Shown: piece after piece, positions 2,944 through 36,699 of the stretch
Position numbering within the stretch: the stretch's first letter is position 1
How the letters are laid out: every line of letters begins with the position of its first letter
Assembly (NCBI GenBank): GCA_937934305.1
Contig: CALHAG010000002.1
Span: forward strand, 13,263 to 77,262
Length of the DNA stretch: 64,000 nt
Origin: Candidatus Caldarchaeum subterraneum
GTDB lineage: Archaea; Thermoproteota; Nitrososphaeria_A; Caldarchaeales; Caldarchaeaceae
Direction of reading: 5' to 3'
The notes under the pieces: model-generated
The model's database searches: none
What the model saw: only the letters and a program-made list of their open reading frames with translations
What the model was told of the DNA's origin: nothing
Made by a program: the position numbers and the translations under genes

Positions 2944-2969
2944 TCCAATATAGAAAAATAAAAGGATGG

Positions 2970-4187: not shown

Positions 4188-4219
4188 AGCGGCATCACCT
4201 AAAACCCCGACATTTAAGT

Positions 4220-5206: not shown

Positions 5207-6390
5207 CAGTGACCAGCCTCCGGTAACTTTGCTGAGCCTTCTGTCTTGATTGAGCGGGTTGGGGGCGGAGTCATTCTGCTGCGTCCCACCCGTGGAAGAC
5301 CGTCAATCATAACCATTGCTATGCCTGGAATATCGCCGACTGAAAAAGCTTCAACAGCATCCTTCGCCACTGAGCCGTATGGAGCGTCGATGACCACGAG
5401 GTCGGCAGGCCTACCTGTCTCAATAATTCCCTCTCTAAGACCGAAAACTCTCGCCGTGTTGCCTGACGCGGCACAAACAACTCTCTCAGCCTCTACATCT
5501 GTGTTAGACGCTATGAAGGATATTGTTCTGATTATTCCTAGGGGGATGACGCCTGTTCCAGAGGGAGCGTCGTTACCTATTATAAGTCTATGAAGCTCGT
5601 TTCTCTGCTTGAGAATCTTGACGGTCTCCAGCATTGAGCGGAAGTTTCCGCATTGAACTACCTCGATGGCGGAGTTGAGGTTTTCAATAATTTTTCTGAT
5701 GTCCTGTAGAGATGGCGAAGTTGGGCCGCCGTTTATGTGTGACACGACATCTGGCCTGACTTTGAGAACTACTTCTGCGTTGTTTATTGTGCTTCCAGGA
5801 ATAGACGCGCCACCTGTATGGATGACGACCTTCATACCGTGTTTCTGCGCTGTCCGCACCATGGCAGCTGCCTCATCAGGGTCCTGCACGCTTCCGAGAC
5901 CCACCTCACCGACAAGCCATACCCCCGCCCTAACAACTTCTTCAAAATCTGACTCAGTCATCCCCTTCTCGAGTAAAAGGGCACCAGCATGTATCTTGGC
6001 GCCCAGCGGATGAATGTTTTTGAATGATTTGTGTGCGATGATTGCGAGAGCCTTTGATGCTTCTTTGTCACCTCTCGGCCTTCCGGGTAGATGCACCTCG
6101 CCTGCTGAAATAAATGTCGTTACACCTCCGTGGACTGAGGATTCTATGAAGCCGAGTGTGTTCTGCCGTGGTGTGAAGTCTCCGAAAACTGGGTGGACGT
6201 GTGAATCAAAAAGGCCCGGCATCACTGTCATGTTGTTGACGTCGAAGACACCGTCCGCAGGCCGTGAGATGTTCCAACCCACTTCCTCAATCACTCCGTC
6301 CTTGATGTAAATGCTGTTACCCTCGGCCACTGGCTTGTTGATGTCTCCTGACAGTATTTTTCCAGCATTTTTAATTATGTATGAAGGCAT
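5206..6390 (-). CDS. metal-dependent cyclic amidohydrolase (enamidase / dihydropyrimidinase-like superfamily)
   Basis: 394 aa with PGLFDSHVHPVFGDF (HxH metal motif) near the N-terminus, and GGASIPG/HINGGPT-type motifs further in. Confidence 0.8.
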   Translation of the reverse strand: MPSYIIKNAGKILSGDINKPVAEGNSIYIKDGVIEEVGWNISRPADGVFDVNNMTVMPGLFDSHVHPVFGDFTPRQNTLGFIESSVHGGVTTFISAGEVHLPGRPRGDKEASKALAIIAHKSFKNIHPLGAKIHAGALLLEKGMTESDFEEVVRAGVWLVGEVGLGSVQDPDEAAAMVRTAQKHGMKVVIHTGGASIPGSTINNAEVVLKVRPDVVSHINGGPTSPSLQDIRKIIENLNSAIEVVQCGNFRSMLETVKILKQRNELHRLIIGNDAPSGTGVIPLGIIRTISFIASNTDVEAERVVCAASGNTARVFGLREGIIETGRPADLVVIDAPYGSVAKDAVEAFSVGDIPGIAMVMIDGLPRVGRSRMTPPPTRSIKTEGSAKLPEAGH

Positions 6391-6414
6391 GTACCTCTGT
6401 GATTTTTGGAGGGT

Positions 6415-9618: not shown

Positions 9619-10476
9619 ATGCCCAGGCTGTTCTATGTTTTGCAGGGTGTTGGCGCGGGTTTTTTCTTCGGCACCGCATCTATCTTTGTCAGGTTTCTGA
9701 CAGGTGTTGACGCTTTCACGATTGTTGTTTTCCGTGTATTGGTGGCGGGGCTTCTTCTTTCGGTCTTGGCTGCTTTTTTCTTCCGGAGTGATGTTGTAAA
9801 GGCTTTTCGCAGCTTTCCCGGAGAGATACCGCTGCTCGGTCTTCTCCTGAGCTTTCACTTCATCTTTTTCGTGCTCGGTGTCCAAAACACCTCCGTCGTC
9901 AACGCAACCACTCTCGTCAACACTACGCCCGCGATGGCTCTTGCTATAGGCTGGGGCCTCGGCTGGACCAGGCCCTCAAACCTCAACGTTGTTGGACTGG
10001 TTCTCGCTGTAGCAGGCTCTGCTACCATGGCGTTGGGCGAATCGTCTGGAGCAGGTGGAGGGTTGCTTGGCAACGTCTACGCCGTGTTGGGGGCTTTTTT
10101 CTGGGCCCTCTATCTCGTTGTTGGGAAAAGGGTTAGGCAGGAGGTGAACATCTTCGCCGTCTTTGGCCCGCTTCTACTCTTCACATCTCTACCGGCCCTG
10201 GCGGCGGCTTACCTACTGGGCCAAGGCCTCTACCCGCCTAACTTGGAGCAGACGCTTTTCCTCCTCGCTCTCGCGCTTTTCCCCACTGTTCTCGGCCACG
10301 GACTACAGTTCTCCAGCTTGAGAGGACTTCACCCATATCAAGCGTCCTCGCTTGCTCTGTTGGAGCCGATTGTTGCGGCTCTTCTCGCCGCTGTTTTGCT
10401 TGCTGAGGTCGCGGGCCCGGTGACCTATCTTGGAGCAGCCGCGGTGATTTTGGGCATCTATCTCGTCATAAGGTAG
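9619..10476 (+). CDS. DMT-superfamily (EamA-like) transporter
   Basis: 285 aa, about 10 TM helices, two EamA-like halves. Confidence 0.75.
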   Translation: MPRLFYVLQGVGAGFFFGTASIFVRFLTGVDAFTIVVFRVLVAGLLLSVLAAFFFRSDVVKAFRSFPGEIPLLGLLLSFHFIFFVLGVQNTSVVNATTLVNTTPAMALAIGWGLGWTRPSNLNVVGLVLAVAGSATMALGESSGAGGGLLGNVYAVLGAFFWALYLVVGKRVRQEVNIFAVFGPLLLFTSLPALAAAYLLGQGLYPPNLEQTLFLLALALFPTVLGHGLQFSSLRGLHPYQASSLALLEPIVAALLAAVLLAEVAGPVTYLGAAAVILGIYLVIR

Positions 10477-11408
10477 TCGATGAGGAGTTTGGCTGTGGCG
10501 GCGTCTTGGACGGCGAGGCCCACGCTCTTGAAAACAGTTATCTCACGCTCATCTGTTCTCCCGGGCTTGAGTCCCGCGGCTATTTCCCCTATCTCTGCGT
10601 AGATGTCCTCGAACCTCATCAGCCCAAGCTCAATAGGCTTGAGGATGTCGCCAGCCTCCTCCCGCACCGCTTCACGCGAGTCAACCACGAGCTTCGAGTT
10701 TGCGACGAGCGCTGGCTCGATTTCAACCATCTCGGGTGTGTAGCCTCCTATGGCGGATATGTGTGTGCCTTCTTTCACCCAGCTCTTGAGCACTACCGGC
10801 TGCTTAGAGGTTGTTACTGTTATCACTACGTCGCTCCATCTCACAAGCTCCTCCGCAGTCGGCGACGGCTTAACATCATGACCCAGGCGACCCATCTCCG
10901 CCACAAACTCGTTTAAGCGCTTCGAGTCGATGTCATAGGCCTTGAAGATGGTGTATGGATAGTTTGCCGCGACAACTCGAAGCTGCCACCTCGCCTGATA
11001 ACCTGTGCCGATTATGCCGACTCTGGTGAAGTCACGGCGTGCGAGATGTTTGATGGAGACGGTTGTTGCGGCCGCTGTCCGTAGACCTGTGAGGGCCCTG
11101 GCCTCTGCGACGAGCCGAGGCAGCCCCGTCGAGGCGTCCAAGGCTATGACTGTGGCGTTAATTGTTGGGAGACTTTTTTCAAGGTTCCGGGGATAGACTG
11201 TCACCAGCTTGAGGCTGAAAATCCCCATATCGGGAACAAGGCACGGCATCATCAATATGTCTCCTCCATGCTCCCTGTTTTCGACGCGTGAGCGGACAGG
11301 CATCACAACGCGGCCTGTGCTGTAAAGGATGTAGGCACGCTCCACAGCCTCAACAACCTTCACAGGGTCAACCAAAGAAGCCACTTCATCATCAGTCAAA
11401 AACTTCAT
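10458..11408 (-). CDS. ornithine cyclodeaminase / mu-crystallin family protein (archaeal alanine dehydrogenase / ketimine reductase-like)
   Basis: MKFLTDDEVASLVDPVKVVEAVERAYILYSTGRVVMPVRSRV..., Rossmann GIIGTGYQARWQL. Start taken at the internal MKFLTDD rather than the tracked upstream M at 11465. Confidence 0.85.
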   Translation of the reverse strand: MKFLTDDEVASLVDPVKVVEAVERAYILYSTGRVVMPVRSRVENREHGGDILMMPCLVPDMGIFSLKLVTVYPRNLEKSLPTINATVIALDASTGLPRLVAEARALTGLRTAAATTVSIKHLARRDFTRVGIIGTGYQARWQLRVVAANYPYTIFKAYDIDSKRLNEFVAEMGRLGHDVKPSPTAEELVRWSDVVITVTTSKQPVVLKSWVKEGTHISAIGGYTPEMVEIEPALVANSKLVVDSREAVREEAGDILKPIELGLMRFEDIYAEIGEIAAGLKPGRTDEREITVFKSVGLAVQDAATAKLLIDYLMTR

Positions 11409-11478
11409 ACATGGAACGGGCAGCAGCGCACTTATATCCTTGTATATGCACCATCTATAAATCATCTCAATTGAACTT

Positions 11479-13752
11479 TTGAACGTGTCCGCCGGACGGG
11501 CTGCAACGTTTCTAATTTTCGCGCTACTGCTGACTATTTCCTCAGTTCACGGCGGTGTTGTAGAGGAGTTGGTGCAGCGTCCGCCGGCTGAAAAGAGCGA
11601 TTCCTCATCCATGGTTGGGGAAATGTTCGCCGAGCTGGGTTTCGACGGCTACATTCAGCGGAGATATTATCCGCTTCTTGATGTAAGCTTGGTTGACATA
11701 GGTGTTGACAGGCTTTTGAATGTCTCGGGCTTGAATGCGGCGGCTGTTGATGGCCGCGGTGTCTTGATAGCTGTTGTGGACACGGGGGTGGATTACCGTC
11801 ATCCAGCCTTCAGAACAGCTAATGGCACGAGGATTGTTGCTATCTGGGACCAGACGGTCGAGGGGAAGCCGCCGCAAGGCTTCGGATACGGCTACGAATG
11901 CGATAGACAAGAGATTTTATCAGGCACTTGTCCTCAGCGCGACACGGTGGGCCATGGAACGGTGGTGGCCTCGATTGCGGCTGGAGGAGTTTACGGCGAG
12001 TGGGTGCTGAGAGGTGTTGCCTCTGGCGCGGAACTGGTTGTGGTAAAGACCGGAGGCCCTGCGTGTGGTGGGACGCGGTGGTTCTTCGGCGAAACGGGGC
12101 TGCTTGACGGCATAGCCTATGCGGTTGATAAGGCAAAGCAACTGGGTAGAAGGCTTGTCGTCGTCCTGAGTCTCGGAACAGACATCGGTGCACATGACGG
12201 CAGCACACCCCTTGAAAAAGCGCTAGACAAATGGGCCGAGGAGGATGGAGTCGTCTTCGTCGTCGCAGCAGGAAACTCGGCCAACGACTCCCGACACGTC
12301 GAAGCAACACTCACGCAAGGCATCCAGCTCACACTACGGATGACTATTCCTGAGCAGACAACAGAGGCCGCCCTTTCCCTCGTAACCCACTCCGGAAACG
12401 TTATGGAGCTAGCTCTTACATCACCGTCGCTGAACAGGGTGGAGCTGCCGCTAAACGGCTCCAAAACCTTCAGAGAAATCACGCTCGAAACAAGCACACA
12501 GAGAACAGGGCCTCTTCAGGAAATCGCCATCAGCATCAAAGCCAATCCTCTCGAGACAGGTGTTTGGAGGCTTTCTATAACACCGCGCCAAGTATTCGAC
12601 GGGAAAATGCATGCATGGCTCGAGTCAGACACATGTAGCCAAGAGTCGGAAGCCTTCCTCCCCTCAGAGGACTATGACATCACATCATCCTTCACGGTAA
12701 CTATTCCGGGCACAGCCAAGAAGGTCTTGACAGTCGGGGCCTATAACACTAGAAGAACTTGGACAGCGGGAGGACAGACATGGAGCGTGGGAGGCACAGT
12801 CGGAGACATCGAGTTCTACAGCGGACGCGGCCCCACCACAGACGGCAGAACCAAACCCGACATCACCGCACCCGGAGGCGTAGTGTTCGCAGCCCGTTCA
12901 AGAGATGCATCACGTCAAGCATTCAGCCCCAGCGAAGACACAGCGGTGAGCAGAGGCACCAGCATGGCCGCACCACATGCAGCTGGCGTGGCTGCGCTCA
13001 TCCTCCAACTCGCCCCAACCCTATCACCAGAAGAAGTTTTCGAAATTATCAGAAACACTGCGAGACGGGATAGCTACACAGGTGACACGGTGTCGAACAC
13101 ATGGGGGCATGGCAAGCTAAACGCAGACATAGCCTATGTACTTCTAGCCGAGGTGGATGGCCCGGTTGCAGAAGCTCGGCCGACGATTCTACTCGACAAC
13201 AAGGCAGTCGCCAACATCTCTACACCGAGCGTAACCAGCCTAGTGCTCTTGAGAAACAGACAAGCCAACATCTCTCTCCAGCTCCCCTCAACACCATACA
13301 CCCGATACACCACCACCCCCAGCCACTTCATCGTAAACGGTACACATGAGAAAGCACGTTTCATTCTCGATGCATATCATAGGGTTGATGTTCTATATCC
13401 CAACGGAACGATGATTGACACAGCCTGGGCACGGGAAGGAGACACACTGGACATCAACTCACTGCTAGGAGCCAAAGGGTTGAAACTTAGTTTGAGAGGC
13501 TATGTCGACGAGAAAGGTGTAGAACATAGCGGCACAACACTTCGCGTCACTGCTCCAACACGAATAACACTCATTCTAGAGGAGCCGAACATTCTCACGC
13601 CTGTGCTGGGAGCGCTCACCGCCTTAGTGCTGCTGGTTCTGCTGTCAACCGCTGTGATGCGGCTCAGACGCTACAGAAACTCTGGAACAAGGCCCTCGTC
13701 CACAACACACCTGCCTTCATCGTCCACGGAGCTTATCACGAAAAGCGGATGA
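11479..13752 (+). CDS. S8 subtilisin-like serine protease, secreted with C-terminal TM anchor
   Basis: Signal peptide. Asp box AVVDTGVDYRHPAF, His box DTVGHGTVVASIAAG, Ser box GTSMAAPHAAGVAALI. C-terminal LGALTALVLLVLLSTAV anchor. Confidence 0.9.
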   Translation: MNVSAGRAATFLIFALLLTISSVHGGVVEELVQRPPAEKSDSSSMVGEMFAELGFDGYIQRRYYPLLDVSLVDIGVDRLLNVSGLNAAAVDGRGVLIAVVDTGVDYRHPAFRTANGTRIVAIWDQTVEGKPPQGFGYGYECDRQEILSGTCPQRDTVGHGTVVASIAAGGVYGEWVLRGVASGAELVVVKTGGPACGGTRWFFGETGLLDGIAYAVDKAKQLGRRLVVVLSLGTDIGAHDGSTPLEKALDKWAEEDGVVFVVAAGNSANDSRHVEATLTQGIQLTLRMTIPEQTTEAALSLVTHSGNVMELALTSPSLNRVELPLNGSKTFREITLETSTQRTGPLQEIAISIKANPLETGVWRLSITPRQVFDGKMHAWLESDTCSQESEAFLPSEDYDITSSFTVTIPGTAKKVLTVGAYNTRRTWTAGGQTWSVGGTVGDIEFYSGRGPTTDGRTKPDITAPGGVVFAARSRDASRQAFSPSEDTAVSRGTSMAAPHAAGVAALILQLAPTLSPEEVFEIIRNTARRDSYTGDTVSNTWGHGKLNADIAYVLLAEVDGPVAEARPTILLDNKAVANISTPSVTSLVLLRNRQANISLQLPSTPYTRYTTTPSHFIVNGTHEKARFILDAYHRVDVLYPNGTMIDTAWAREGDTLDINSLLGAKGLKLSLRGYVDEKGVEHSGTTLRVTAPTRITLILEEPNILTPVLGALTALVLLVLLSTAVMRLRRYRNSGTRPSSTTHLPSSSTELITKSG

Positions 13753-14306
13753 TACCTATCACGTGGAATCATATCAGGTCTGGGATGCCCTGCAAACGCC
13801 AAGTCGATTATGACATAGCATGCCGTGACATGGACTCCGCATTCATTTAGAAGGGCGGCGGCCGTGTTTATCGTCGAAGAGGTCCGTCTCACATCGTCTA
13901 TGAGAAACACGTTGCGAAACCGGGATGCAACCGCCTTGTCCAAGTGAAGCGTCACGGGTTTACTTTCCGTGACTGAGAAACCTTCCGCCGCAACCGGCTG
14001 CTGAAAAATTAGTTTTCTCGCCTTGTGAATTGAGAAGTACGGTTTCCCAAGCTCGTTGGCCAAAGCCAAGCCATATTTGGCGCCCGAAGTCTCAACAGAG
14101 GCCACAGCATCCGCATCATACCCCATCTTCTCAGCATGCATTTTGACAAGCTTGGCAATCGCCCGGAAAACCATAGGCTCATGCACAACATTCAGCCAAA
14201 AAATCCTAAGTATCCTCTTGCCCTCCACTGGAACTATCTTTACATGGGCCCCTGTCCTAAGACCATTTAACAGCTTATGGAGAACATTGACAAAGTCGCT
14301 CTCCAC
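13671..14306 (-). CDS. phosphoribosyltransferase family protein (purine/pyrimidine PRTase or GfcR-like)
   Basis: PRPP-binding motif VFLIDDVRRTSSTINTA. Convergent 82-nt overlap with the protease 3' end. Confidence 0.65.
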   Translation of the reverse strand: MESDFVNVLHKLLNGLRTGAHVKIVPVEGKRILRIFWLNVVHEPMVFRAIAKLVKMHAEKMGYDADAVASVETSGAKYGLALANELGKPYFSIHKARKLIFQQPVAAEGFSVTESKPVTLHLDKAVASRFRNVFLIDDVRRTSSTINTAAALLNECGVHVTACYVIIDLAFAGHPRPDMIPRDRYHPLFVISSVDDEGRCVVDEGLVPEFL

Positions 14307-14327
14307 AAAACGTATTCAATTTGGCTC

Positions 14328-15449
14328 CTAATATATGGTGCGGGTCTTTGCGGCGGCTGGTGCCCACTGAAACAAGAGAGCAGCGATGAAAGGCATGAAA
14401 GCTAGGCTGAGCAGAACACTCTGGTATCCATAGACATCGACGGCGACGCCGACGAAGGGTACAATTAAGTGGCCTAATCCGAAGGTCAGCCCATACATCA
14501 GGGCCGAGGCTGCTCCTAGGTTTTGGGGTAAAAGGTCATGGGAGTATGCGACCAGTATGGGGTGGACGGCGAATATGAGGAACCCTAGGACACCGTATGA
14601 GAGATATGATAGCTGCGGGGGAGTAAGGACGGCGACGGGTATCCAGAGACCGGTCAGCAACAGAAACATTGAAACCGCTCTTCTCTTACCAATTTTCTCG
14701 GCAACATATCCGGCTGACAACATACCGCCAGCACCCGCGAGTATCATGACCGTCAACACCGTTCCAGCAATAGAGAAACTTAGACCACGCTCCGTGAGAT
14801 AGAGAGGGAGAAAAGTGACGAATGATAACGCGGCCACTGCGCGGAAAATAGCTGTGGCTAACGCGAAGCCGAGCTTCTTTACATCCGGCCTAACAGAGTT
14901 TTGAACATGTGCTTCAAGAGGTTGCCTCACCCCTACCAAGAGCATGCTTGCTGCCAAAGCGGGTAGTAAAATGAGGAGCCAAGTGCCTCGAACCCCCATG
15001 ACGGCGTAAGCTGTTGTAGCGTGGAAGGAGCCGACCGCCAACCCGACGTCCCCACCCGACATGAAGAAGGATACCGACGAAGCCCTTTTCTCTGAAACTG
15101 AGGCCAAGGAGGTTGCCGGAGGATGGAACAAGGCTGAACCGACTCCGCCGAGAAACCCGAGCAACAACATCAAGGAATAGCTTTCAACAAACCCGATGGC
15201 TGAGACCGCGACACCTCCCAAAAAAAGTCCGAGAGGCATCAAGATGGTTTTAGGCTTCCTGTCAAAGAAAAGCCCCACCGCTATTTGGAGGAATGATGCT
15301 GTCATCAAGTAGACAGTAGGAATCAAAGCTAGTGTGGCTGCAGATGATGTCTGCTGCGCCGCCAGTAGCGGAAGCAACGGAGGTAAGCTTGTGTAGAGAG
15401 TGTCGTTAGCTAAATGGCCGAAGAAAAGCAGCGGTAACCTTTTTGTCAT
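14328..15449 (-). CDS. MFS transporter
   Basis: 373 aa, 12-TM profile. Confidence 0.8.
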   Translation of the reverse strand: MTKRLPLLFFGHLANDTLYTSLPPLLPLLAAQQTSSAATLALIPTVYLMTASFLQIAVGLFFDRKPKTILMPLGLFLGGVAVSAIGFVESYSLMLLLGFLGGVGSALFHPPATSLASVSEKRASSVSFFMSGGDVGLAVGSFHATTAYAVMGVRGTWLLILLPALAASMLLVGVRQPLEAHVQNSVRPDVKKLGFALATAIFRAVAALSFVTFLPLYLTERGLSFSIAGTVLTVMILAGAGGMLSAGYVAEKIGKRRAVSMFLLLTGLWIPVAVLTPPQLSYLSYGVLGFLIFAVHPILVAYSHDLLPQNLGAASALMYGLTFGLGHLIVPFVGVAVDVYGYQSVLLSLAFMPFIAALLFQWAPAAAKTRTIY

Positions 15450-15518
15450 TTTTCCCGAGGTTTTTGAATAATCTGGGTTTTAGAGATTTCCATCCCCGAC
15501 AACCCTAAAACAAGGGCG

Positions 15519-16661
15519 TTGGTACTCTGCTATGTGAAAGAGGTTCTAGACCTGCCATCCCTTTTTCCGCTGAGCTACTGGGAGAAGATGAGTGACTCAG
15601 GCCTGTTTCCCGAGGAGTTTTGGCGAGAGTGTGGAAGACGTCGATTGCCCGGTTTCCTTATTCCAGCAACCTATGGTGGATTGGGTAAAACTGTCGGCGA
15701 CCTCGTCGAGGCCGTGATTTACCTCACTATGTATGGCTGCGGAACAGCTGTTTACCCACTTCTCAGCAACAACATGTCCTCGCTCGTGATAAACAAGTCA
15801 GGAACCGAGAAACAGCGACAAAAATTTCTCCCACGCCTCGCCATAGGCGAATACATCATGGGTCTCTCGATAACGGAGAGGGAGTCGGGCTCGGATGTGC
15901 TCTCGATAAAGACAACCGCGGTCAAACAGGGTGGAAAATATGTGATAAATGGTGAGAAGATGTATGTCAACAACTTTGACAGAGCTACTCACATGCTTCT
16001 CGCCGCTAGAACCACACCTGTTGAGCGTGCTGCGAAGAAGAGCCTGGGGCTTACGTTGTTTGTTCTCGACATGAAGAGCGCTGGGCTTAGCTTCTCGGAG
16101 CTCCCGAAGATGGGCACCAACTATTTCAGGACAGGTGTGATGAGGCTTGAAAATGTGGAGGTTGATGAAGAGGATGTTGTGGGGGAGCTGGACAATGGAT
16201 GGAAAGCTCTTGCACACGCCCTTAACCCGGACCGCATAGTTTACGCAGCTGTCGCCGTTGGCTCAGCGCTCTTCGCCATCAAAACAGCCACCTCATACGC
16301 CCAAGAGCGCAAAGTCTTCGGAAAACCGATAGGAGCTTATCAGGGCATACAGTTCCCACTCGCATCTCTCTACACAGAAACAGAGGCTGCAAGGCTTCTT
16401 ACACTAGACGCGGCTGCGAAATTTGACAGAGGTGAGGATGCGAGCGTGGCCGCGTGCTTGGCAAAGTACTTCGCCTCTGAGGTGGTGTTTAAGGCTGTTG
16501 GGCAGGCTGTTCAGGTTCTCGGCGGATACGGCTACCTTAGGGAGTCGGGGCTGGAGCGTGTGCTTAGAGACATCTACTTGCTCAGGTCAGGGCCGATTAC
16601 GCAGGAGCTGGCCCTCGCATTCATAGCAGAGAAAGGCCTCGGCTTGCCGCGGTCCTACTAA
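15519..16661 (+). CDS. acyl-CoA dehydrogenase family protein
   Basis: 380 aa, LTMYGCGTAVYPLLSNN, ERESGSDVLSIKTTA, C-terminal YQGIQFPLA...GGYGY motifs. Confidence 0.85.
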   Translation: MVLCYVKEVLDLPSLFPLSYWEKMSDSGLFPEEFWRECGRRRLPGFLIPATYGGLGKTVGDLVEAVIYLTMYGCGTAVYPLLSNNMSSLVINKSGTEKQRQKFLPRLAIGEYIMGLSITERESGSDVLSIKTTAVKQGGKYVINGEKMYVNNFDRATHMLLAARTTPVERAAKKSLGLTLFVLDMKSAGLSFSELPKMGTNYFRTGVMRLENVEVDEEDVVGELDNGWKALAHALNPDRIVYAAVAVGSALFAIKTATSYAQERKVFGKPIGAYQGIQFPLASLYTETEAARLLTLDAAAKFDRGEDASVAACLAKYFASEVVFKAVGQAVQVLGGYGYLRESGLERVLRDIYLLRSGPITQELALAFIAEKGLGLPRSY

Positions 16662-17635
16662 AGCTCCACAACCCGGCCCACATCCATCTTCTCAGCCATG
16701 CGCAAGACACGCGAAGTGAAGTAGAGGTCGAGAGCCGCAAACCCAACGGATTTGAGCAAAGATACATGAACGTTACGGGGCCTTGTCAAATTTTGTTTAA
16801 CAACTTCATGCAGCTCAAGAACCTTCGCCGGGTCCACGATGCCCTTCTCCACAGCCGCCATGATGTCACCCGCTTCCCTTAGCACGGATTTCTTGAGGTC
16901 GGCTGCTATCAACTCTGCGCGTCGAAAAGTCTCAAGGTCAAGTTCTCTACGCGTAGGAAGAGCACCTATGCTCGTCACATGCACGTTTTCCGCAAGCCAC
17001 TCACCCGATAAAACCGGTTCAGCCGAGTTCGTAGCCGTTAACACTACGTCAGCGTTTTCCACGGCTTCACGTGGGCTGTCAACAGCTTTTGCATCTATTC
17101 CAAGCGTTTTCGAAGCTTTTTCTGCAAGCTTCTCTCTGTTGGCCTTTGTTGGGCTGTAGATTTTGACACGCTCGATGTTGCGTACGGTGTGGAGGGCGGT
17201 TAACTGTGTCCAAGCTGTTCTCCCGCTTCCAATCAAAGCCGCGGACCTGCTGTCGACTGGCGCGAGATATTTTGCACCCACCCCACCAATAGCCCCTGTT
17301 CTCAGCGAAGTGAGTGCCACAGCGTCCAAAACACCTTTAAGCACGCCTGTTTCTATGTCGAAGAACAGCACAACACCATGAGCCGCCTCCATGCCGTGTA
17401 GAACAGGGTTTTTCCTGTACTCGTTTATCAGCTTCACCGCGTATCCTCCGACGTGGAGGCTCGCGGCCGGCATGTTGAGGTAGACAGCTTCACGCTCCTC
17501 AATCGCTGTAACCATCCGCGGCGGAGCAACATACTTCTCATCACCATAATCCCTGAAAAAATCTTCAACGATTTCCACAGAGGTTTTCATGTCAAGCCAG
17601 TTCTCGAGCTCGCTTCGAGAAATTACTCTGACCAA
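16658..17635 (-). CDS. ornithine cyclodeaminase / mu-crystallin family protein (second paralog)
   Basis: 325 aa, ...LHVGGYAVKLINEYRKNP, ALIGSGRTAWTQL Rossmann. About 35-40% similar to the 10458..11408 copy by eye. Confidence 0.85.
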   Translation of the reverse strand: MVRVISRSELENWLDMKTSVEIVEDFFRDYGDEKYVAPPRMVTAIEEREAVYLNMPAASLHVGGYAVKLINEYRKNPVLHGMEAAHGVVLFFDIETGVLKGVLDAVALTSLRTGAIGGVGAKYLAPVDSRSAALIGSGRTAWTQLTALHTVRNIERVKIYSPTKANREKLAEKASKTLGIDAKAVDSPREAVENADVVLTATNSAEPVLSGEWLAENVHVTSIGALPTRRELDLETFRRAELIAADLKKSVLREAGDIMAAVEKGIVDPAKVLELHEVVKQNLTRPRNVHVSLLKSVGFAALDLYFTSRVLRMAEKMDVGRVVEL

Positions 17636-17637
17636 TT

Positions 17638-18909
17638 TTATTCAGCCCGTTTATCGATGACGCGTTTGGCTTTGCCTACCTCTTGACGAGGTAGTGAGAG
17701 TGGTTCTGCGAGCTCCACCTGCACGCTTGTCAGCAGCGTCTCATGTAGTTCGCTCTCCAACTTGTTGCGGAGGGCTTCAGCCTCATCACCCTTCAATTCA
17801 TGGGCCAGCTCGGCGACGACTTTCATTTTATCAAGACCCTTCTCCCTCCAGATAATTATCTGATATTCGGGGCCGAGTTCACGGTGTCTGAGCAGCACTG
17901 CCTCGACGGCGCTGGGCCATACAGCAACCCCTGAAACCTTTATCATGTCATCAACCCTGCCCCTTATGTATCCAAGCCTGAGATGCGTTCTTCCACAGTC
18001 ACATGAACGAGCGTCGTAAATGTATGAGATGTCTCTGCAACGGTATCGCAGCAGCGGCGCAGCCTCCTTCGTCAAAGTAGTGAACACGAGCTCGCCTTTT
18101 TCCTCGGGGCCAACGGGTTCACCGGTCTTGGGGTCGATGACTTCTACGAGGAAATGGTCCTCCCAGAGATGCAGCCCATCGTGGAGAAAGCAGTCGTTCG
18201 CTACACCTGGTCCACAAAGCTCGGTGAACCCGTAGATATCGTACACATCCATGTTCCATTTCTCGGCGACCCATTTCTTCATCTCTGAAGTCCACATCTC
18301 CGAGCCGAAAACACCCTTCCTAACCAATGTATCCCTCGCCGGGTCCACACCCATCTCCAAAGCCGTCTCAGTCAACCTAAGAATGTATGAAACAACCGCG
18401 CAGACCATCGTGGTTCCAAAGTCAAGCATGTACTGGATTTGGCGGCGGCTGAAGCCTGCGCCTGTAGGGACAATCATGGCGCCTATCCTGCGTGCGCCGT
18501 AGTAGAACCCGAACCCGCCGGTAAACATTCCAAAGCTGGGTGTAATCTGGAAAACATCTTCCTTAGTAAGCCCGGACATGGCTAGGCTGCGGGCCGAGAC
18601 CTCAGCCCAGACCTCTATGTCGTTTTTTGTGTAGAACCCGAGAGTCGGCACACCTGTTGTCCCCGAGGTGGCGTGAACCTCGAGAACCTCGCTCCGCGGC
18701 ACCGCGAGAGTTCCGTATGGATAAAGTGAACGTAGCTCGTCTTTGGTTGTGAAAGGCAGCTTCACCAAGTCATCCACTGATTTAACGTCGTCTGGGCTGA
18801 CCTTAGCCTCATCAAGTTTCCTCCGGTAAAAGGGGTTGTTTCTGTAAGCGTGGCGAACAGTCCACCGGAGCATTTTATCACGGTTCTCCTCGATATCTTT
18901 CCTGCTCAT
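17638..18909 (-). CDS. phenylacetate-CoA ligase family adenylate-forming enzyme (PaaK / coenzyme F390 synthetase-like)
   Basis: HATSGTTGVPT (AMP-binding motif), FGMFTGGFGFYYGARRIGAMIVPTGAG, YGFTE. Start taken at MSRKDIEE, internal to the tracked ORF. Confidence 0.85.
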   Translation of the reverse strand: MSRKDIEENRDKMLRWTVRHAYRNNPFYRRKLDEAKVSPDDVKSVDDLVKLPFTTKDELRSLYPYGTLAVPRSEVLEVHATSGTTGVPTLGFYTKNDIEVWAEVSARSLAMSGLTKEDVFQITPSFGMFTGGFGFYYGARRIGAMIVPTGAGFSRRQIQYMLDFGTTMVCAVVSYILRLTETALEMGVDPARDTLVRKGVFGSEMWTSEMKKWVAEKWNMDVYDIYGFTELCGPGVANDCFLHDGLHLWEDHFLVEVIDPKTGEPVGPEEKGELVFTTLTKEAAPLLRYRCRDISYIYDARSCDCGRTHLRLGYIRGRVDDMIKVSGVAVWPSAVEAVLLRHRELGPEYQIIIWREKGLDKMKVVAELAHELKGDEAEALRNKLESELHETLLTSVQVELAEPLSLPRQEVGKAKRVIDKRAE

Positions 18910-19043
18910 AGTTTCAGCGGGCTTGTTGAAGAAGCGGGCTGAATTCACATCAAGGCTGAGGAGCCGCCGTTCTAAAAAATGTTTACAACACAACAAAACA
19001 CAAACCAAAGCTATAATACTACGCAGCAAACCAGATATCCGTT

Positions 19044-20009
19044 ATGAAGCTGGTTACTTTCCAACATCCCCATCGTCGCGAACCACGTCTCGGCATTGTG
19101 TACGGCGAATACGTGATTGACGGAAACATGGCCTACACCGTGTTGTTAAGTGAGGAGGGCGAAGAGGACCCGGATGTTTTGGCAAATGCTCTTCTGCCAT
19201 CGAACATGATTTCTTTCCTGCGTAGAGGCCGGAGAGCTTTTGAGGCCGCTGAGAGAGTTTTGTTCAAGGCAAGGTCCTTCATCAACATGTCCTATGGAGA
19301 AGGCCTTGTGTATGAGCTTAGCAAAGTACACCTATATGCACCCATACCGCGGCCGGGCAAAATTATACACACCGCAGGAAACTTCCGCGAACACGCGAAA
19401 GAAGCTGAGAAAGCAAAGTGGGAGTTTCCGATTCCTCAGTGGATATCTTTCCTGAAGAGTCCCACAGCCGTCATAGGGCCATACGACAACATAGTGTATC
19501 CCAAGTACACCAAGGAGCTCGACTACGAGCTCGAGATGGCGATTGTGATTGGGAAGCGTGGCAAATATATCACGAAGGAGAGGGCGTTCGACTATGTAGC
19601 CGGATTCATGGTGTTTAACGACATAACCGCGCGTGATATTCAGCGGCAGGAGATGAAGAATGGGTTGCTGAACTTCGGAAAAAACCTTGACACATTTGCT
19701 CCACTAGGCCCCTATCTCGTGACAAAGGACGAGGTAAGCAACCCCCATAACCTGAAGATGGAGCTGCGGGTTAACGGCGAGGTGCGGCAGTCGGGGAACA
19801 CCAACAGGCTCTCGGTCACGCTGCAGGAGATTATCGAGCATTATTCATGGGTAATGCTTGAACCAGGCGACATCATCACCACGGGAACAATATCCGGAGT
19901 GGCCGCATTCAGAGAAAACCCGGAGAAATATTATCTCAAGCCAGGTGACTTGGTCGAGTCTGAGATTGAGAGCCTCGGCGTGATGCGTAATCCTGTCGTG
20001 GCTGAGTAA
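19044..20009 (+). CDS. fumarylacetoacetate hydrolase (FAH) family protein
   Basis: 321 aa, KIIHTAGNFREH, LDYELEMAIVIGKRG, MVFNDITARDIQ motifs. Confidence 0.85.
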   Translation: MKLVTFQHPHRREPRLGIVYGEYVIDGNMAYTVLLSEEGEEDPDVLANALLPSNMISFLRRGRRAFEAAERVLFKARSFINMSYGEGLVYELSKVHLYAPIPRPGKIIHTAGNFREHAKEAEKAKWEFPIPQWISFLKSPTAVIGPYDNIVYPKYTKELDYELEMAIVIGKRGKYITKERAFDYVAGFMVFNDITARDIQRQEMKNGLLNFGKNLDTFAPLGPYLVTKDEVSNPHNLKMELRVNGEVRQSGNTNRLSVTLQEIIEHYSWVMLEPGDIITTGTISGVAAFRENPEKYYLKPGDLVESEIESLGVMRNPVVAE

Positions 20010-20010
20010 A

Positions 20011-21216
20011 ATGTCGTCAGAGTCTTGGCGTGGAGAAAAACACTGGGTCAGCCCATACAACTTCTCTCCACAGGTTGTTAGCCAATTCAACTTTCCCGAG
20101 AAGATTGAGATTTATGATGTTACGTTGAGGGATGGGGAGCAGACGCCCGGCGTTGTGCTGAAGGCTTCTGAGAAGCTGGAGATAGCGAAGGCATTGGATG
20201 AACTGGGTGTGCACAGGCTTGAGGCTGGGATGCCCGTTGTCTCCGAGGAGGACTTTAACGCAGTGAAGATGATTGCCAACGAGGGCCTTAGAGCGAGAGT
20301 CTTCGGGTTCGCCCGACTCGTGAAAGAAGACATCGACGCAGCCCTCAAAGCAGATGTCTCAGGAATAGTTACCGAGGGGCCTGTCGGGGTTCCGAAGCTG
20401 ATGCAGTTCGGGTGGCGGCCTGAAGACGTTGTGGAGAAGGCGGTGACGCATGTGCAGTATGCAAAGGACCATGGGCTGTACACTGTTTTCTTCGGTGTTG
20501 ACGGTACAAGAGCTGACATCAACTTTCTCAAACACATCTACTCGAGGGTTGTGACCGAGGCTAAGCCCGACGCTGTCGCGGTGGTTGACACATTTGGCTG
20601 CGCTTCTCCCGAGGGGTTCAGGTATCTTGTGGGGGAGATTGTGAGGACGGTGAAGGTGCCTGTCGAGGTTCACTGCCACAATGACTTCGGCATGGGGACT
20701 GCGGTGAGCATCGCCGGGTTGTCCGCGGGAGCGAGCGTGGTGCATGTATCTGTTAACGGGATTGGTGAGAGAGCTGGCAACGCGGCTCTTGAGGAAGTTG
20801 TTCTAAGCCTTGAGCTACTCTACGGCAGACGCCTCGGCCTCCGTCTCGAAAAGCTTGTCGAAGTCTCTCGGCTTGTGGAGAAGTTGACAGGTTTCAGACT
20901 CGCCGCCAACAAACCCGTCGTCGGAGAGAGAGTGTTCACGAGAGAATCCGGCATATCTGTCGCAGGCTGGGTAAAGTATCACCTCGGCTCCGAAGCCTTT
21001 CTACCAGAGCTTGTCGGAAACAGGCATGATGTCCTCGTCGGCAAAAAGAGCGGGAAACACTCTATCGAGTGGAAGCTCGAGAAACTCGGTGTAAAGGCGT
21101 CGCCCGAAGAGGTTCAGGCCCTTCTCCAGAAAGTAAAAGAGATATCCATCGCTAAGAAGAGGGCTTTGTCTGATGAGGAGCTTCTCGAATGTCTGGAGAC
21201 AGTGAGGCGGAGTTAG
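20011..21216 (+). CDS. DRE-TIM metallolyase, 2-isopropylmalate / homocitrate / citramalate synthase family
   Basis: IEIYDVTLRDGEQTPGVVL (LeuA-type TLRDGEQ, not DmpG TLRDGSH), HCHNDFGMGTA, 401 aa. Starts 1 nt after the FAH stop. Confidence 0.8.
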   Translation: MSSESWRGEKHWVSPYNFSPQVVSQFNFPEKIEIYDVTLRDGEQTPGVVLKASEKLEIAKALDELGVHRLEAGMPVVSEEDFNAVKMIANEGLRARVFGFARLVKEDIDAALKADVSGIVTEGPVGVPKLMQFGWRPEDVVEKAVTHVQYAKDHGLYTVFFGVDGTRADINFLKHIYSRVVTEAKPDAVAVVDTFGCASPEGFRYLVGEIVRTVKVPVEVHCHNDFGMGTAVSIAGLSAGASVVHVSVNGIGERAGNAALEEVVLSLELLYGRRLGLRLEKLVEVSRLVEKLTGFRLAANKPVVGERVFTRESGISVAGWVKYHLGSEAFLPELVGNRHDVLVGKKSGKHSIEWKLEKLGVKASPEEVQALLQKVKEISIAKKRALSDEELLECLETVRRS

Positions 21217-22265
21217 GGCTTTACAGGGTTTTGAGCCCTGAGGGGGAGGTCGTCGGAGAGCCTGACCCGGGCCTCTCCAACGAGACGATGCGTAAGATGA
21301 TGCATGACATGGTGGTTTTGAGAACGTTTGACCAGTGGATGCTCAAAATTCATCCTCTCGGAAAAGCATCTCGCTATGCGCCTGTCGAGGGACAGGAGGC
21401 TTCAGTTGTCGGAAGCGTTCACAGCTTGAGCGACGTTGACTGGACGTTTCCAACCTACCGTGAGCTTACCGTGGGTCTTCTCAGAGGAGCTCCTCTCACC
21501 ACGTTGATTCATAGGATGTTTGCCACGAGCCTCGACCACATGAAGGGCCATGAAATCACGTTGTACGGAGACAAACGTTACAGGATTGTCGTGGGCGCGG
21601 GAGCGGTTTCTCTGATGTGTCCAGTGGCGGTTGGCATGGCCATGGCGGCGAAAAAACGCGGCGAGAAGGAGGTGTTTCTGGTTTACTTGGGCGACGGCGC
21701 CACCTCCAAGGGCGATTTCCACGAAGCGATAAACTGGGCAGGTGTCTTCAAGCCGCCGGTTATCTTCTTTGTCCAAAACAACCAATGGGCCATCTCAACA
21801 CCCTTCAAGATACAGACAGCTGCACCCAACATAGCGGTAAAGGCCAAGGCCTATGGAGTCCCGGGTATACGGGTTGACGGGAACGATGTCCTAGCAGTCT
21901 ACACTATCTGCAAAAAGTTTGTGGAGAAGGCCCGTGAAGGCGGGGGAGCTGCTCTGATAGAGGCTGTCACATATAGGATGGGGCCTCATACAACCGCCGA
22001 CGACCCCTCGAAGTACCGCTCCGAAGAGGAGGTTGAAAAGATGAGAGCCCTTGACCCGTTGAAGCGGCTGCGGATTTACCTTACCCGCAACGGATTGTGG
22101 TCTAACGAGGAGGAGCAGAAGATTGTGGAGAACTTCAGGGAAGAGCTGCGCCGCGCCACCGAGGAAGCGGAGAAAACGCCGCCGCTCAACCCACGTGTTA
22201 TCTTTGAAGACGTTTACGCAGAGCTTCCATGGCATCTGAGAGAAGAGATGGCTGAACTGGGTTGA
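21189..22265 (+). CDS. TPP-dependent 2-oxoacid dehydrogenase E1 component alpha subunit (no beta subunit gene adjacent)
   Basis: YLGDGATSKGDFHEAINWAGVFKPPVIFFVQNNQWAISTP, 358 aa. Overlaps the upstream gene by 28 nt. Confidence 0.85.
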   Translation: MSGDSEAELGLYRVLSPEGEVVGEPDPGLSNETMRKMMHDMVVLRTFDQWMLKIHPLGKASRYAPVEGQEASVVGSVHSLSDVDWTFPTYRELTVGLLRGAPLTTLIHRMFATSLDHMKGHEITLYGDKRYRIVVGAGAVSLMCPVAVGMAMAAKKRGEKEVFLVYLGDGATSKGDFHEAINWAGVFKPPVIFFVQNNQWAISTPFKIQTAAPNIAVKAKAYGVPGIRVDGNDVLAVYTICKKFVEKAREGGGAALIEAVTYRMGPHTTADDPSKYRSEEEVEKMRALDPLKRLRIYLTRNGLWSNEEEQKIVENFREELRRATEEAEKTPPLNPRVIFEDVYAELPWHLREEMAELG

Positions 22266-23122
22266 AGCTAAAACCTTGGACAATAACCCTAGCCGACACC
22301 GAAAACCTTCACCCACATGAGCAATCCATTCCACAAGCAGTGGCCCGCATAGCCGAGGACATCGCTCAAAAAGAACGCTTCATAGACCCTGTGATAGTGG
22401 ACGCGGAGACAGGGCTGGTCGTTGACGGCACACATAGGGTTGAGGCGGCTATAAGGCTTGGCCTTGGAAAAATCCCTGTCTACACAGTCGACTACATGTC
22501 GCCACGGGTTGTCCTCGCCGGATGGGGACGGGCTGCATCAAAAAACATATCCAAAGATGAGCTTCGAGGATTATTTGGTCGACTAGGCTTCACGGAGTCC
22601 ATGGCAAGCTATGATGCACGTTTCATTTGGAGCGATGGCCATGTGCTACAGGTTAAGCATAGTGGAGAACTGTCGACCAAGCAGGTTTACGAAAAACTCT
22701 CCATCATAGACCAAAGCCTACAGCACCTCGGCATAGCTTATGTCAGGGACAGCGACGTTGAAGAGCTTGTCAAACAAGGTAAACATGTCTTCGGATACTT
22801 GCTGAGGCCCTTGAAGAAAGAGGAAGTCGTCTCAATCGTTAAACAGGGTTACAGGCTTCCCCCCAAGTCTACCCGCCACCTCATCGACCGAAGACCAATG
22901 TACATAAACTGTCCTCTCGAAATTCTCCGCAGCAGCGACGCCGTGGAAAAATTTACTGAATTTCTCTCAGAGGGGGTTTGGGTGGAGCTGGGCCCCGGCG
23001 CTGAGCTGGACAGGAGATATGATGAAAAAGTTATGGTTTTTTACAGGGAGGATTTGGCTGCTTTTTATCCCGAGAAGCTGCTCAAGCTTGTCAAGAGCTC
23101 GTTGAAGCAAACGCTTCGATGA
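22262..23122 (+). CDS. ParB/sulfiredoxin-like domain protein (possible ADP-dependent serine kinase SerK-type)
   Basis: DPVIVDAETGLVVDGTHRVEAAIRLG resembles the ParB-N DGhHR motif. TTG start overlapping the E1-alpha stop (gggTTGAag). Function not recognised. Confidence 0.4.
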   Translation: MKLKPWTITLADTENLHPHEQSIPQAVARIAEDIAQKERFIDPVIVDAETGLVVDGTHRVEAAIRLGLGKIPVYTVDYMSPRVVLAGWGRAASKNISKDELRGLFGRLGFTESMASYDARFIWSDGHVLQVKHSGELSTKQVYEKLSIIDQSLQHLGIAYVRDSDVEELVKQGKHVFGYLLRPLKKEEVVSIVKQGYRLPPKSTRHLIDRRPMYINCPLEILRSSDAVEKFTEFLSEGVWVELGPGAELDRRYDEKVMVFYREDLAAFYPEKLLKLVKSSLKQTLR

Positions 23123-24038
23123 CCTTTTTCGCCAGCATCGTCGCAGCGGCTTCCTGAGCCTCCAGAGTTTGCGCCCCTATGTGAGGAGTTAGCACGACGT
23201 TGTCGAGCTCGAGAAGTTTGCTTCCCGTGGGCGGTTCTTTCTCGAAAACATCGAGTCCCGCGCCAGCTATTCTACCGTTTTTTAGAGCGGTGTAGAGAGC
23301 CTCTTCATCTATGACCTCTCCCCGCGAGGCGTTTATGATTATCGCCCCCGGCTTCATCATCTCCAGTTTACTGGCGTTGATTAAGTGTCTTGTCTCGGGT
23401 GTGAGAGGGACGTGCAGTGTTATGATGTCTGCTGTCCGCAGCACTTCCTCGAGGCTGGTGAGCTTGGCCCCTGCTTTTGCAAGAACCTCCTCGGGTATCG
23501 GTATGACATCGTAGGCTACAATCTTCATTCCCATGGCGTATGCTATCTCAGCCACTCGCCGCCCAATCCGTCCATAGCCCACCACGCCAAGAGTCTTCCC
23601 AGCCAGCTCGACACCCATGGCCTCAGACTTCGGCCACCTACCCCCGCGAACCTGTCTATCACACCAAGCAATTTTACGGGCCACGGCTATCATCAACCCG
23701 ATGACAAGCTCCGCCACGCTCTCGGTCGAGGACTCGGGCGTGTTCAGCACCTTGACACCATGCCGCGCCGCAGCCTCGAGGTCGACGTTGTCAAGCCCCA
23801 CTCCAGCCCGGCCAACAACCTTCAACACAGGCACACCGCGTTCAATAACCTTGGCCGTCACCTTTGTCCTACCCCGGACAAGCAACACATCATAGCCGCC
23901 TATCACAGATTCAAGCTCCTCCGCCGAAATCCCAGGACGCAAATCCACCCTAAAACCCGCTTTCTCCAGCAAATCAACCGCCGACCTGTCAATCGCGTCG
24001 GCCACCAAAACCTTCCTGTTCACAATAACCCCATCCAC
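23091..24038 (-). CDS. D-isomer-specific 2-hydroxyacid dehydrogenase (SerA-like D-3-phosphoglycerate dehydrogenase)
   Basis: 315 aa, GKTLGVVGYGRIGRRVA NAD motif, ...HIGAQT. Confidence 0.85.
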   Translation of the reverse strand: MDGVIVNRKVLVADAIDRSAVDLLEKAGFRVDLRPGISAEELESVIGGYDVLLVRGRTKVTAKVIERGVPVLKVVGRAGVGLDNVDLEAAARHGVKVLNTPESSTESVAELVIGLMIAVARKIAWCDRQVRGGRWPKSEAMGVELAGKTLGVVGYGRIGRRVAEIAYAMGMKIVAYDVIPIPEEVLAKAGAKLTSLEEVLRTADIITLHVPLTPETRHLINASKLEMMKPGAIIINASRGEVIDEEALYTALKNGRIAGAGLDVFEKEPPTGSKLLELDNVVLTPHIGAQTLEAQEAAATMLAKKVIEAFASTSS

Positions 24039-30289: not shown

Positions 30290-30294
30290 CCCAA

Positions 30295-30714: not shown

Positions 30715-30753
30715 TGGTTATTTTCTAGAAGATGCCTCGATAAGCGGCTGAGA

Positions 30754-36013: not shown

Positions 36014-36031
36014 GCATGAGCCATTCTACTG

Positions 36032-36694: not shown

Positions 36695-36699
36695 GTTGT

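Follow-up and report, generated by a model that had tools for sequence, protein, structure and literature searches.

We analysed a 64-kb stretch of DNA from Candidatus Caldarchaeum subterraneum, referred to below as the window, and within it the interval 10458-23122, in which a divergent, catabolic-looking gene cluster includes a gene for the alpha subunit of a 2-oxoacid dehydrogenase (E1-alpha; this copy, alpha-1) with no beta-subunit gene (E1-beta) beside it. Read as a whole, the interval is probably a conserved composite stretch of three or more modules that are separate in function. Module A would consist of an FAH-superfamily enzyme, a LeuA-like protein and alpha-1; Module B of a SerK-like kinase and a convergent SerA; and Module C, made up of a PaaK-like ligase with the OCD-family protein OCD1, an acyl-CoA dehydrogenase, transporters and a second OCD-family protein (OCD2), would be a variable set of accessory genes for amino-acid or organic-acid catabolism. 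The simplest reading of alpha-1 itself is that it belongs to a dispersed but classical dehydrogenase complex. A first-pass annotation of this DNA had taken the whole interval for one non-textbook pathway with a partnerless E1-alpha, a reading that does not hold. The genes of the first two modules are as follows (HCS, homocitrate synthase).

19044-20009, plus strand: FAH-superfamily enzyme with an N-terminal domain, YisK-like (Pfam FAA_hydrolase, 2.6e-67)
20011-21216, plus strand: LeuA/HCS-like DRE-TIM protein (HMGL-like and HCS_D2 domains)
21189-22265, plus strand: E1-alpha (alpha-1) of a heterotetrameric-type 2-oxoacid dehydrogenase (E1_dh, 1.7e-84)
22262-23122, plus strand: SerK-family (ParB/Srx-fold) protein of 286 amino acids (NCBIfam SerK, 1.6e-18, and SbnI, 6.4e-10; no Pfam match)
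23091-24038, minus strand: SerA-like D-2-hydroxyacid (3-phosphoglycerate) dehydrogenase (2-Hacid_dh and 2-Hacid_dh_C)

The gene content, coordinates, domain calls and divergent layout of the cluster listed in the first-pass annotation were all recovered. So was the tight coupling that it had described for the plus-strand genes: the FAH and LeuA-like genes are separated by 1 nucleotide, the LeuA-like gene overlaps that of alpha-1 by 28 nucleotides, and the latter overlaps the SerK-like gene by 4 nucleotides (TTGA). The 3′ end of the SerA-like gene overlaps the convergent SerK-like gene by 32 nucleotides.

Alpha-1 matches the full length of the E1_dh family (PF00676, 283.8 bits, profile positions 3-299 of 300). 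Its best match in the PDB is the alpha subunit of the T. thermophilus branched-chain E1 (1UM9, 1.3e-78), and the solved structures closest to it are of alpha2beta2 E1 enzymes. Both the thiamine-diphosphate motif GDG-X(25-30)-NN and the conserved alpha-subunit His are intact, with G168, D169, G170, N197, N198 and H267 invariant or nearly so across lone and operon-encoded relatives. E1_dh domain, motif and catalytic His are alike in alpha-1 and in known complexes with a heterotetrameric E1, namely that of T. thermophilus and those encoded by the E1alpha-E1beta-E2-E3 operons of Thermoplasma and Aeropyrum. These features show alpha-1 to be an ordinary-looking alpha subunit of the branched-chain or pyruvate type. 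It is 93% identical to its C. subterraneum counterpart, and exactly the same protein occurs in many hot-spring Caldarchaeum metagenome-assembled genomes (MAGs). Because alpha-1 stays 66-76% identical across lineages in which the SerK-like protein drops to 34-54%, it appears to be under purifying selection.

Thiamine-diphosphate enzymes require both a PP and a Pyr domain, of which E1-alpha provides only the PP domain. Most canonical E1-alpha genes from metagenomes are followed directly by E1-beta where the sequence extends far enough; these genes came from a scan with an E1-alpha alignment, in which the matches listed (at least 600) were mainly canonical relatives of 40-49% identity, and which served as a control and a source of E1-beta sequences, not as a census. 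Around alpha-1, tblastn with two canonical E1-beta queries (E≤10) found no E1-beta in any frame of the window, so that the E1-beta in a mis-called frame that the first-pass annotation had envisaged is not hidden there. Neither E2 nor E3 was found in the window (tblastn, E≤1e-3), and none of the three lay within ±10 kb of the orthologous loci, which upholds the earlier statement that these partners are not encoded nearby. The 286-amino-acid gene was considered as a degenerate E1-beta and rejected, being a clear SerK/SbnI homologue.

A partner is nevertheless encoded at a distance. The nearest operon-encoded relative of alpha-1 (52% identity) is from an Aigarchaeota archaeon (locus L173), in the order LipA-E1alpha-E1beta-E2-E3-LplA/B_cat-TBP. 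Searching with the L173 E1-beta identified loci in Caldarchaeum MAGs (L176-L180) that have the order LipA-E1beta-E3-LplA/B_cat-TBP and the same flanks; relative to L173, E1-alpha and E2 are cleanly gone from an otherwise intact operon. We used cluster membership to tie E1-beta and the alpha paralogues to the window's own genome: a single 1,502,792-bp contig carries E1-beta (MEM0336766.1), the window's exact alpha (MEM0337251.1) and a second alpha paralogue, alpha-2 (MEM0336468.1). Corresponding sets are present in a second MAG (alpha-1, MDJ0272625; beta, MDJ0273011; alpha-2, MDJ0273312) and in the 1.68-Mb genome of C. subterraneum (alpha-1, BAJ50112; beta, BAJ51441 = E6N916; alpha-2, BAJ51201). 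The published C. subterraneum inventory also lists two E2 genes, LipB, and LipA (E6N917, an accession adjacent to E6N916) (PMC3904984 Table S1). The first-pass annotation had judged classical 2-oxoacid dehydrogenase activity unlikely. Because a canonical partner is encoded elsewhere in the genome, in a LipA-E1beta-E3-LplA/B-type locus, an outcome that the annotation itself had named as refuting its reading, and because alpha-1 keeps every canonical motif, that judgement is not supported.

Alpha-2 is 61-68% identical to the L173 alpha (versus 52% for alpha-1) and likewise sits without an E1-beta, beside genes for a thiolase, a DUF35 protein, an acyl-CoA dehydrogenase and an acetyl-CoA synthetase (L090, L092). 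Other lone alphas have similar surroundings, that of L095 having an acyl-CoA dehydrogenase nearby and no E1-beta (tblastn) and the relative in L175 adjoining a branched-chain amino-acid ABC transporter. Like known complexes with a heterotetrameric E1, the Caldarchaeum genome has E1-beta, E3, LipA and a lipoyl transferase; unlike the Thermoplasma and Aeropyrum operons, it keeps E1-beta and E3 with the lipoylation genes and its two E1-alpha genes at separate catabolic loci. We propose that alpha and E2 disappeared from the E1-beta site of the ancestral operon, and that the alpha subunits are now placed beside genes that feed them. Alpha-1 and the distant E1-beta would then form a normal alpha2beta2 E1, which would oxidatively decarboxylate pyruvate or a branched-chain 2-oxoacid made or processed by the FAH-type enzyme. 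Metabolic reconstructions of the Caldarchaeales (formerly Aigarchaeota) record 'PDH complex present' and leave the routes of leucine and isoleucine degradation unidentified despite many branched-chain amino-acid transporters. A complex encoded in pieces, with two alphas beside different catabolic genes, suggests a way in which the range of substrates could be determined.

The FAH protein has B. subtilis YisK as its best solved relative (8SKY, 1.7e-50), an oxaloacetate decarboxylase that also binds 4-hydroxy-2-oxoglutarate. Its small N-terminal domain and FAA_hydrolase domain are shared with YisK, FAHD1 and Cg1458 (oxaloacetate decarboxylases and acylpyruvate hydrolases of the FAH superfamily), from which it differs in falling below all NCBIfam equivalog cut-offs. 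FAH enzymes are decarboxylases, hydrolases or hydratases, and because they generally make or process 2-oxoacids, the substrates of E1, a functional link between the FAH protein and alpha-1 through a 2-oxoacid is plausible by analogy. The FAH and E1-alpha genes are adjacent in L174 and have a LeuA-like gene between them in L091.

The middle gene of Module A encodes a LeuA-like protein without a catalytic base. Its best PDB match is the S. acidocaldarius homocitrate synthase (6KTQ, 3.5e-61), and it shares the TIM barrel, the HCS_D2 subdomain, and the R-D-E and HxH ligands with the family formed by LeuA, HCS, CimA and methylthioalkylmalate synthase (MAMS; that of B. juncea is 6E1J). At ~400 amino acids it has no regulatory domain, like HCS, and it scores below every NCBIfam cut-off (best scores 403 bits against 517 and 396 against 485). 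We aligned it to S. acidocaldarius HCS, N. meningitidis isopropylmalate synthase (IPMS) and B. juncea MAMS. It retains R40, D41, E43, H221 and H223, the ligands of the metal and the 2-oxoacid. At the catalytic positions, V163 replaces a conserved Glu (Glu227 in MAMS), R311 the first His of the HxxGxH motif, S316 its second His, which is the general base (His388 in MAMS), and S327 the stacking Tyr399 of MAMS; the general-base position corresponds to His379 in MtIPMS. The MAMS variants H388A/D/E/Q, E227A/D and Y399S are inactive, and the arrangement is conserved in IPMS (PMC11532901).

This loss is identical in every triad orthologue of the LeuA-like protein and extends well beyond them. We searched 1.84 billion representative proteins exhaustively with HMMER and examined the nearest 150; at least 78 full-length clusters among them share the loss, with replacements that are variable and mostly hydrophobic. 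In the representatives counted as canonical, those with the catalytic Glu and the general-base His (n=38), conservation of the other His, the Tyr and one more Glu is also 97-100%; this fifth position, Glu in 97% of the canonical set, is replaced in the base-less clade, and the window protein itself keeps it (position 328). Both groups conserve R40, H221 and H223 at 90% or more. The base-less clade has conserved residues of its own (N17, E219 and H245), two of which, E219 and H245, lie near the metal site. As far as these alignments tell, a large uncharacterised clade of LeuA-like proteins without the catalytic base is a new observation. Its members probably carry wrong annotations as isopropylmalate or homocitrate synthases, which would distort predictions of amino-acid biosynthesis.

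We rejected the LeuA-like protein as an ordinary LeuA, HCS or CimA for its missing catalytic residues. Unlike the Claisen-condensing synthases, it has no general-base His, supporting Glu or stacking Tyr, and because these residues serve acetyl-CoA enolisation, alkylmalate synthesis by the canonical mechanism is unlikely. A synthase of the 2-alkylmalate type, making citramalate, homocitrate or isopropylmalate with alternative catalytic residues, would give the triad a biosynthetic sense, in which the FAH enzyme converts oxaloacetate to pyruvate, E1 makes acetyl-CoA, and the synthase condenses both. The best family and structure matches, which are LeuA and HCS enzymes, speak for such an activity, as do the retained ligands and HCS_D2 subdomain, the clade's own E219 and H245 near the metal site, and the oxaloacetate decarboxylase that is the nearest solved relative of the FAH protein. 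We nevertheless think it unlikely: four positions that are 100% conserved in canonical enzymes (Glu, His, His and Tyr) and the 97% Glu are replaced in the clade by variable, mostly hydrophobic residues unlike a substitute base at those sites; changing the MAMS His to Ala, Asp, Glu or Gln, the Glu to Ala or Asp, or the Tyr to Ser abolishes activity (PMC11532901); and every NCBIfam cut-off is missed.

On the reading that we prefer, the LeuA-like protein may instead be a metal-dependent lyase or decarboxylase that acts on a 2-oxoacid in the same route as the FAH enzyme and E1. A broader form of this proposal, which is possible but which we hold only tentatively, is that one E1-beta, encoded beside E3 and the genes for lipoylation, can combine with any of two or more E1-alpha paralogues, each belonging to a catabolic operon for a substrate of its own. 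Alpha-1, the paralogue linked to FAH, would cooperate with a LeuA-like protein that has given up the catalytic residues for new chemistry (for example as a 2-oxoacid lyase or decarboxylase), perhaps in archaeal degradation of branched-chain or other amino acids.

A second LeuA-like paralogue that lacks the catalytic Glu and His, 50% identical to that of the window, occurs at 14571-15815 of L092, 5.5 kb from a lone E1-alpha of the alpha-2 type; between the two lie genes for an acyl-CoA dehydrogenase, a MOFRL protein and an ADP-forming acyl-CoA synthetase. A search of plasmids for annotated contexts of base-less LeuA-like genes yielded none among the three matches inspected, all of which were canonical, with Glu and His intact. 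One candidate, a LeuA gene paired with one for a thiamine-diphosphate enzyme on a Rhizobium plasmid, was rejected as an acetolactate-synthase-type enzyme beside a canonical LeuA.

The fourth plus-strand gene belongs with its convergent neighbour. The first-pass label of ParB/Srx-like was right as to the fold, which SerK and SbnI share; as to identity, the encoded protein is a distant, full-length relative of SerK. It matches NCBIfam SerK over profile positions 16-243 of 244, and among solved structures it matches those of Tk-SerK (5X0B, 1.7e-9), the P. furiosus homologue and SbnI, with 5UJE at 4e-5. The alignment to Tk-SerK (TK0378), the ADP-dependent enzyme of T. kodakarensis, and to S. aureus SbnI is full-length and includes the shared motifs PHE(Q), DGxHR and PK(S/T)TRH. 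Within the SerK-like family PHE(Q), DGxHR and PPKSTRH are invariant, and residues H19, E20, D55, G56, H58, R59, K202, T204, R205 and H206, invariant in 17 members, align to the Tk-SerK motifs; we take the Glu of PHE(Q) to be Glu30 of Tk-SerK. The protein differs from Tk-SerK and SbnI in its identity of only ~25-30% and in an extra C-terminal extension of ~65 amino acids. We regard it as a putative free-serine kinase of a distinct subfamily. The SerA-like protein scores 375 bits against the TIGR01327 PGDH model (cut-off 454).

Neighbour clustering of SerK-like homologues in other archaea yielded recurrent partners. A class-V aminotransferase (Pfam Aminotran_5), of the archaeal phosphoserine-aminotransferase type, adjoins the SerK-like gene in ~20 loci of other Caldarchaeales families and Micrarchaeota. 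SerA is convergent with it here and in all complete loci of the Caldarchaeum clade, adjoins it in seven loci outside that clade (Pelearchaeum and Micrarchaeota), and lies, as a SerA-like gene, ~4 kb away in one Promethearchaeati locus. Makino et al. described the association of serK with serA and an aminotransferase in Desulfurococcales, neighbours that the SerK-like family shares (PMC5120207). That 2016 paper had no clear-cut homologues elsewhere, and the family now spans Caldarchaeales, Thermofilaceae, Bathyarchaeia, Nitrososphaeria and Micrarchaeota. According to a 2026 preprint, SerK-type kinases beside serA can serve either serine utilisation or synthesis. We conclude from homology and neighbourhood that 22262-23122 and 23091-24038 represent a predicted separate O-phosphoserine module, joined in Caldarchaeum to the end of the triad operon. 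Module B would link free serine and 3-phosphoglycerate through O-phosphoserine, and may also provide O-phosphoserine for cysteine synthesis. With the SerK-like family, the O-phosphoserine route, serving serine use or cysteine production, reaches far past Thermococcales and Desulfurococcales, the groups from which it had been described.

Several further neighbours of the SerK-like gene recur. An ApgM-type phosphoglycerate mutase lies ~1.2-1.7 kb downstream in all eight loci that have it in this position (L009, L033, L035, L036, L040, L041, L055 and L068, mostly Thermofilaceae); in L009 the order is SerK-like, an unannotated ~500-amino-acid protein with a weak ATP-cone match, and the mutase. A ThiS/Urm1-like protein of ~105 amino acids directly follows the SerK-like gene in 12 loci, mostly of Bathyarchaeia (L032, L034, L037, L046, L047, L050, L052-L054 and L063-L065), with GTPase-like and S-adenosylmethionine-synthetase-like proteins after it; by analogy with the CysO/CysM route, cysteine might be made there from O-phosphoserine and a protein thiocarboxylate. 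In L027, L029 and L030, three MAGs of unclassified archaea, an OCD/mu-crystallin gene, 35-36% identical to OCD2, lies ~1 kb downstream of the SerK-like gene, a proximity that recalls the pairing of SbnI with SbnB in staphyloferrin B biosynthesis. In an otherwise identical MAG (L006, GCA_038831385.1), a deletion of ~0.5 kb corresponding to about 22620-23150 of the window cuts the SerK-like protein to 120 amino acids and SerA to 263, and the M48 peptidase gene is split, through either strain variation or an assembly artefact.

Gene order separates the fourth gene from the triad. Using an alignment of the 286-amino-acid protein, we scanned GTDB genomes, one for each species, and mapped the window's proteins onto the 80 loci returned. 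The full order FAH-LeuA-like-E1alpha-286-amino-acid gene-SerA (convergent) was confined to the Caldarchaeum clade (L007-L021). Because ~15 loci of this clade keep the arrangement while the 286-amino-acid protein has diverged to 44-54% identity, the arrangement is not due to chance. Outside the clade, none of the mapped loci had the 286-amino-acid gene beside FAH, LeuA or E1-alpha. FAH-LeuA-like-E1alpha is a unit that persists outside the genus: Pelearchaeum has it (L091), with different upstream neighbours, on another contig than its SerK-like/SerA pair, and in another Caldarchaeales MAG (L174) FAH directly adjoins E1alpha, the LeuA-like gene being absent. The contigs of L091 and L174 both stop right after E1-alpha. 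The first-pass annotation had treated the four plus-strand genes as a tetrad; its fourth member instead belongs to the SerK family, with SerA and the class-V aminotransferase as partners across archaeal phyla, and in Pelearchaeum triad and pair lie on different contigs. The OCD1-PaaK pair, for its part, is dispensable: it is absent from L008 and L014, and its homologues went undetected upstream of FAH in L015 and L021.

The one-pathway reading, in which an E1-alpha without E1-beta would homodimerise or pair with the LeuA-like protein and act on an aryl, heterocyclic or amino-acid-derived substrate, is very hard to reconcile with these results. It draws on the lack of E1-beta, E2 and E3 in the window and within ±10 kb of the orthologous loci, on overlaps that suggest tight translational coupling of four plus-strand genes, on the presence of a PaaK-like ligase, an FAH enzyme and an acyl-CoA dehydrogenase together, and on the co-occurrence of E1-alpha with a base-less LeuA-like protein in two different paralogue pairs (the window and L092). 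Several findings speak against it: E1-alpha has the PP domain and would still need a Pyr domain, a matching lone E1-beta is present in the same genome, the fourth gene goes with SerA and not with the triad, lineages that retain the rest have no OCD-PaaK pair, and L174 has FAH-E1alpha without the LeuA-like gene.

At the other extreme, adjacency could be nothing but inherited synteny in a compact genome, with the FAH, LeuA-like, E1-alpha and SerK-like genes and their neighbours functionally unrelated. In the same lineages, genes as unrelated as those for ribosomal S26e, an M48 peptidase, ProRS and the S8 protease share the conserved order, and outside Caldarchaeales the only association seen was that of the SerK-like gene with SerA or an aminotransferase. 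We still consider this explanation distinctly improbable: FAH-(LeuA-like)-E1alpha is kept in Pelearchaeum and L174, in which both flanks differ, and, as family knowledge has it, all three triad enzymes act on or produce 2-oxoacids.

The composite of modules with a dispersed dehydrogenase is the reading that we favour, and a number of points weigh against it. Because the clearly unrelated S26e, M48 peptidase and ProRS genes are equally order-conserved in the Caldarchaeum clade, synteny within the genus is uninformative on function, and the triad outside the genus amounts to two loci, both at contig ends. Alpha-1 narrowly misses the TIGR03181 cut-off (393.9 bits against 411.35). The binding of alpha-1 to E1-beta is a prediction from sequence, and it was the best 120 relatives of E1-beta that were inspected, so that further beta paralogues may exist. 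The evidence for E2 is a literature table from 2014 that covers a relative, whose E1-alpha is 93% identical, and not this genome. The role proposed for the LeuA-like protein is a guess, and the SerK-like protein scores 66.7 bits against an equivalog cut-off of 380, so that its substrate could differ. What remains is of moderate interest: a fragmented dehydrogenase complex with two alphas, a base-less LeuA-like clade linked to FAH and E1-alpha, and a wide archaeal SerK-like family.

The remaining features of the interval and its edges, including those assigned to Module C, are the following.

9619-10476, plus strand: EamA/DMT-family transporter (Pfam EamA, 5.6e-32; neighbourhood kept in L008)
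10458-11465, minus strand: OCD2, OCD/mu-crystallin family (Pfam PF02423, 1.7e-74)
11479-13752, plus strand: S8 subtilase (Pfam Peptidase_S8, 5.4e-44)
13671-14306, minus strand: phosphoribosyltransferase-domain protein (Pfam Pribosyltran, 1.2e-9)
14328-15449, minus strand: MFS transporter (Pfam MFS_1, 3.7e-29)
15519-16661, plus strand: acyl-CoA dehydrogenase (Pfam Acyl-CoA_dh_N, _M and _1; 4-nucleotide convergent overlap with OCD1)
16658-17635, minus strand: OCD1, OCD/mu-crystallin family (Pfam PF02423, 4.2e-58), downstream of the PaaK-like gene
17638-18948, minus strand: PaaK-like adenylate-forming acyl-CoA ligase (AMP-binding and AMP-binding_C_2)
18949-19043: divergent intergenic region with A/T-rich boxes (read from the sequence)

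The open reading frame of the PaaK-like gene reaches 19029, and gene callers put its start at 18948 (436 amino acids). The intergenic region 18949-19043 is a likely promoter region, with the box ctataata ~25 nucleotides upstream of the FAH ATG. The spacer between the OCD1 and PaaK-like genes, given as 3 nucleotides in the first-pass annotation, measures 2. That annotation had also described the OCD genes as duplicated; OCD1 and OCD2 are only 30% identical and are therefore old paralogues and not products of a recent duplication, and some lineages that keep the remaining genes do without the OCD-PaaK pair. Both OCD proteins fall below the equivalog cut-offs for alanine dehydrogenase, ketimine reductase, cyclodeaminase, SbnB and BhcD. 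The PaaK-like protein scores 438-440 bits against PaaK models with cut-offs of 646-700, and, judged by these scores, is best called a PaaK-like ligase rather than a PaaK phenylacetate-CoA ligase. The acyl-CoA dehydrogenase reaches no NCBIfam equivalog cut-off.

The S8 subtilase and phosphoribosyltransferase genes, which lie inside 10458-23122, and the SerA-like gene just past its end had been omitted from the first-pass annotation; the S8 subtilase is probably unrelated to the pathway. The reading frames of the subtilase and the phosphoribosyltransferase have an unusually long convergent 3′ overlap of 82 nucleotides (13671-13752).

A minus-strand block at 615-8724 encodes a branched-chain-type ABC transporter (permease, two ATPases and binding protein), a luciferase-like monooxygenase, an amidohydrolase and the large subunit of a molybdenum enzyme of the xanthine-dehydrogenase family; the last of these recurs in L174, immediately upstream of FAH-E1alpha. 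The wider surroundings agree with a catabolism of amino acids or organic acids without being diagnostic of it, and the general catabolic flavour that the first-pass annotation had sensed fits.

On the other side of the interval, 30754-42664 is a sugar-nucleotide and glycosyltransferase island, with an NTP transferase, a UDP-glucose dehydrogenase, five GT4-type glycosyltransferases and an epimerase. Its GC content is lower in parts (to 0.45), and at 40-42 kb its AT skew is strongly positive (0.40) and its GC skew negative. Just upstream of this island, at about 29880-30715 of the window (18694-19526 of L001), lies a HEPN/minimal nucleotidyltransferase pair of the toxin-antitoxin type.

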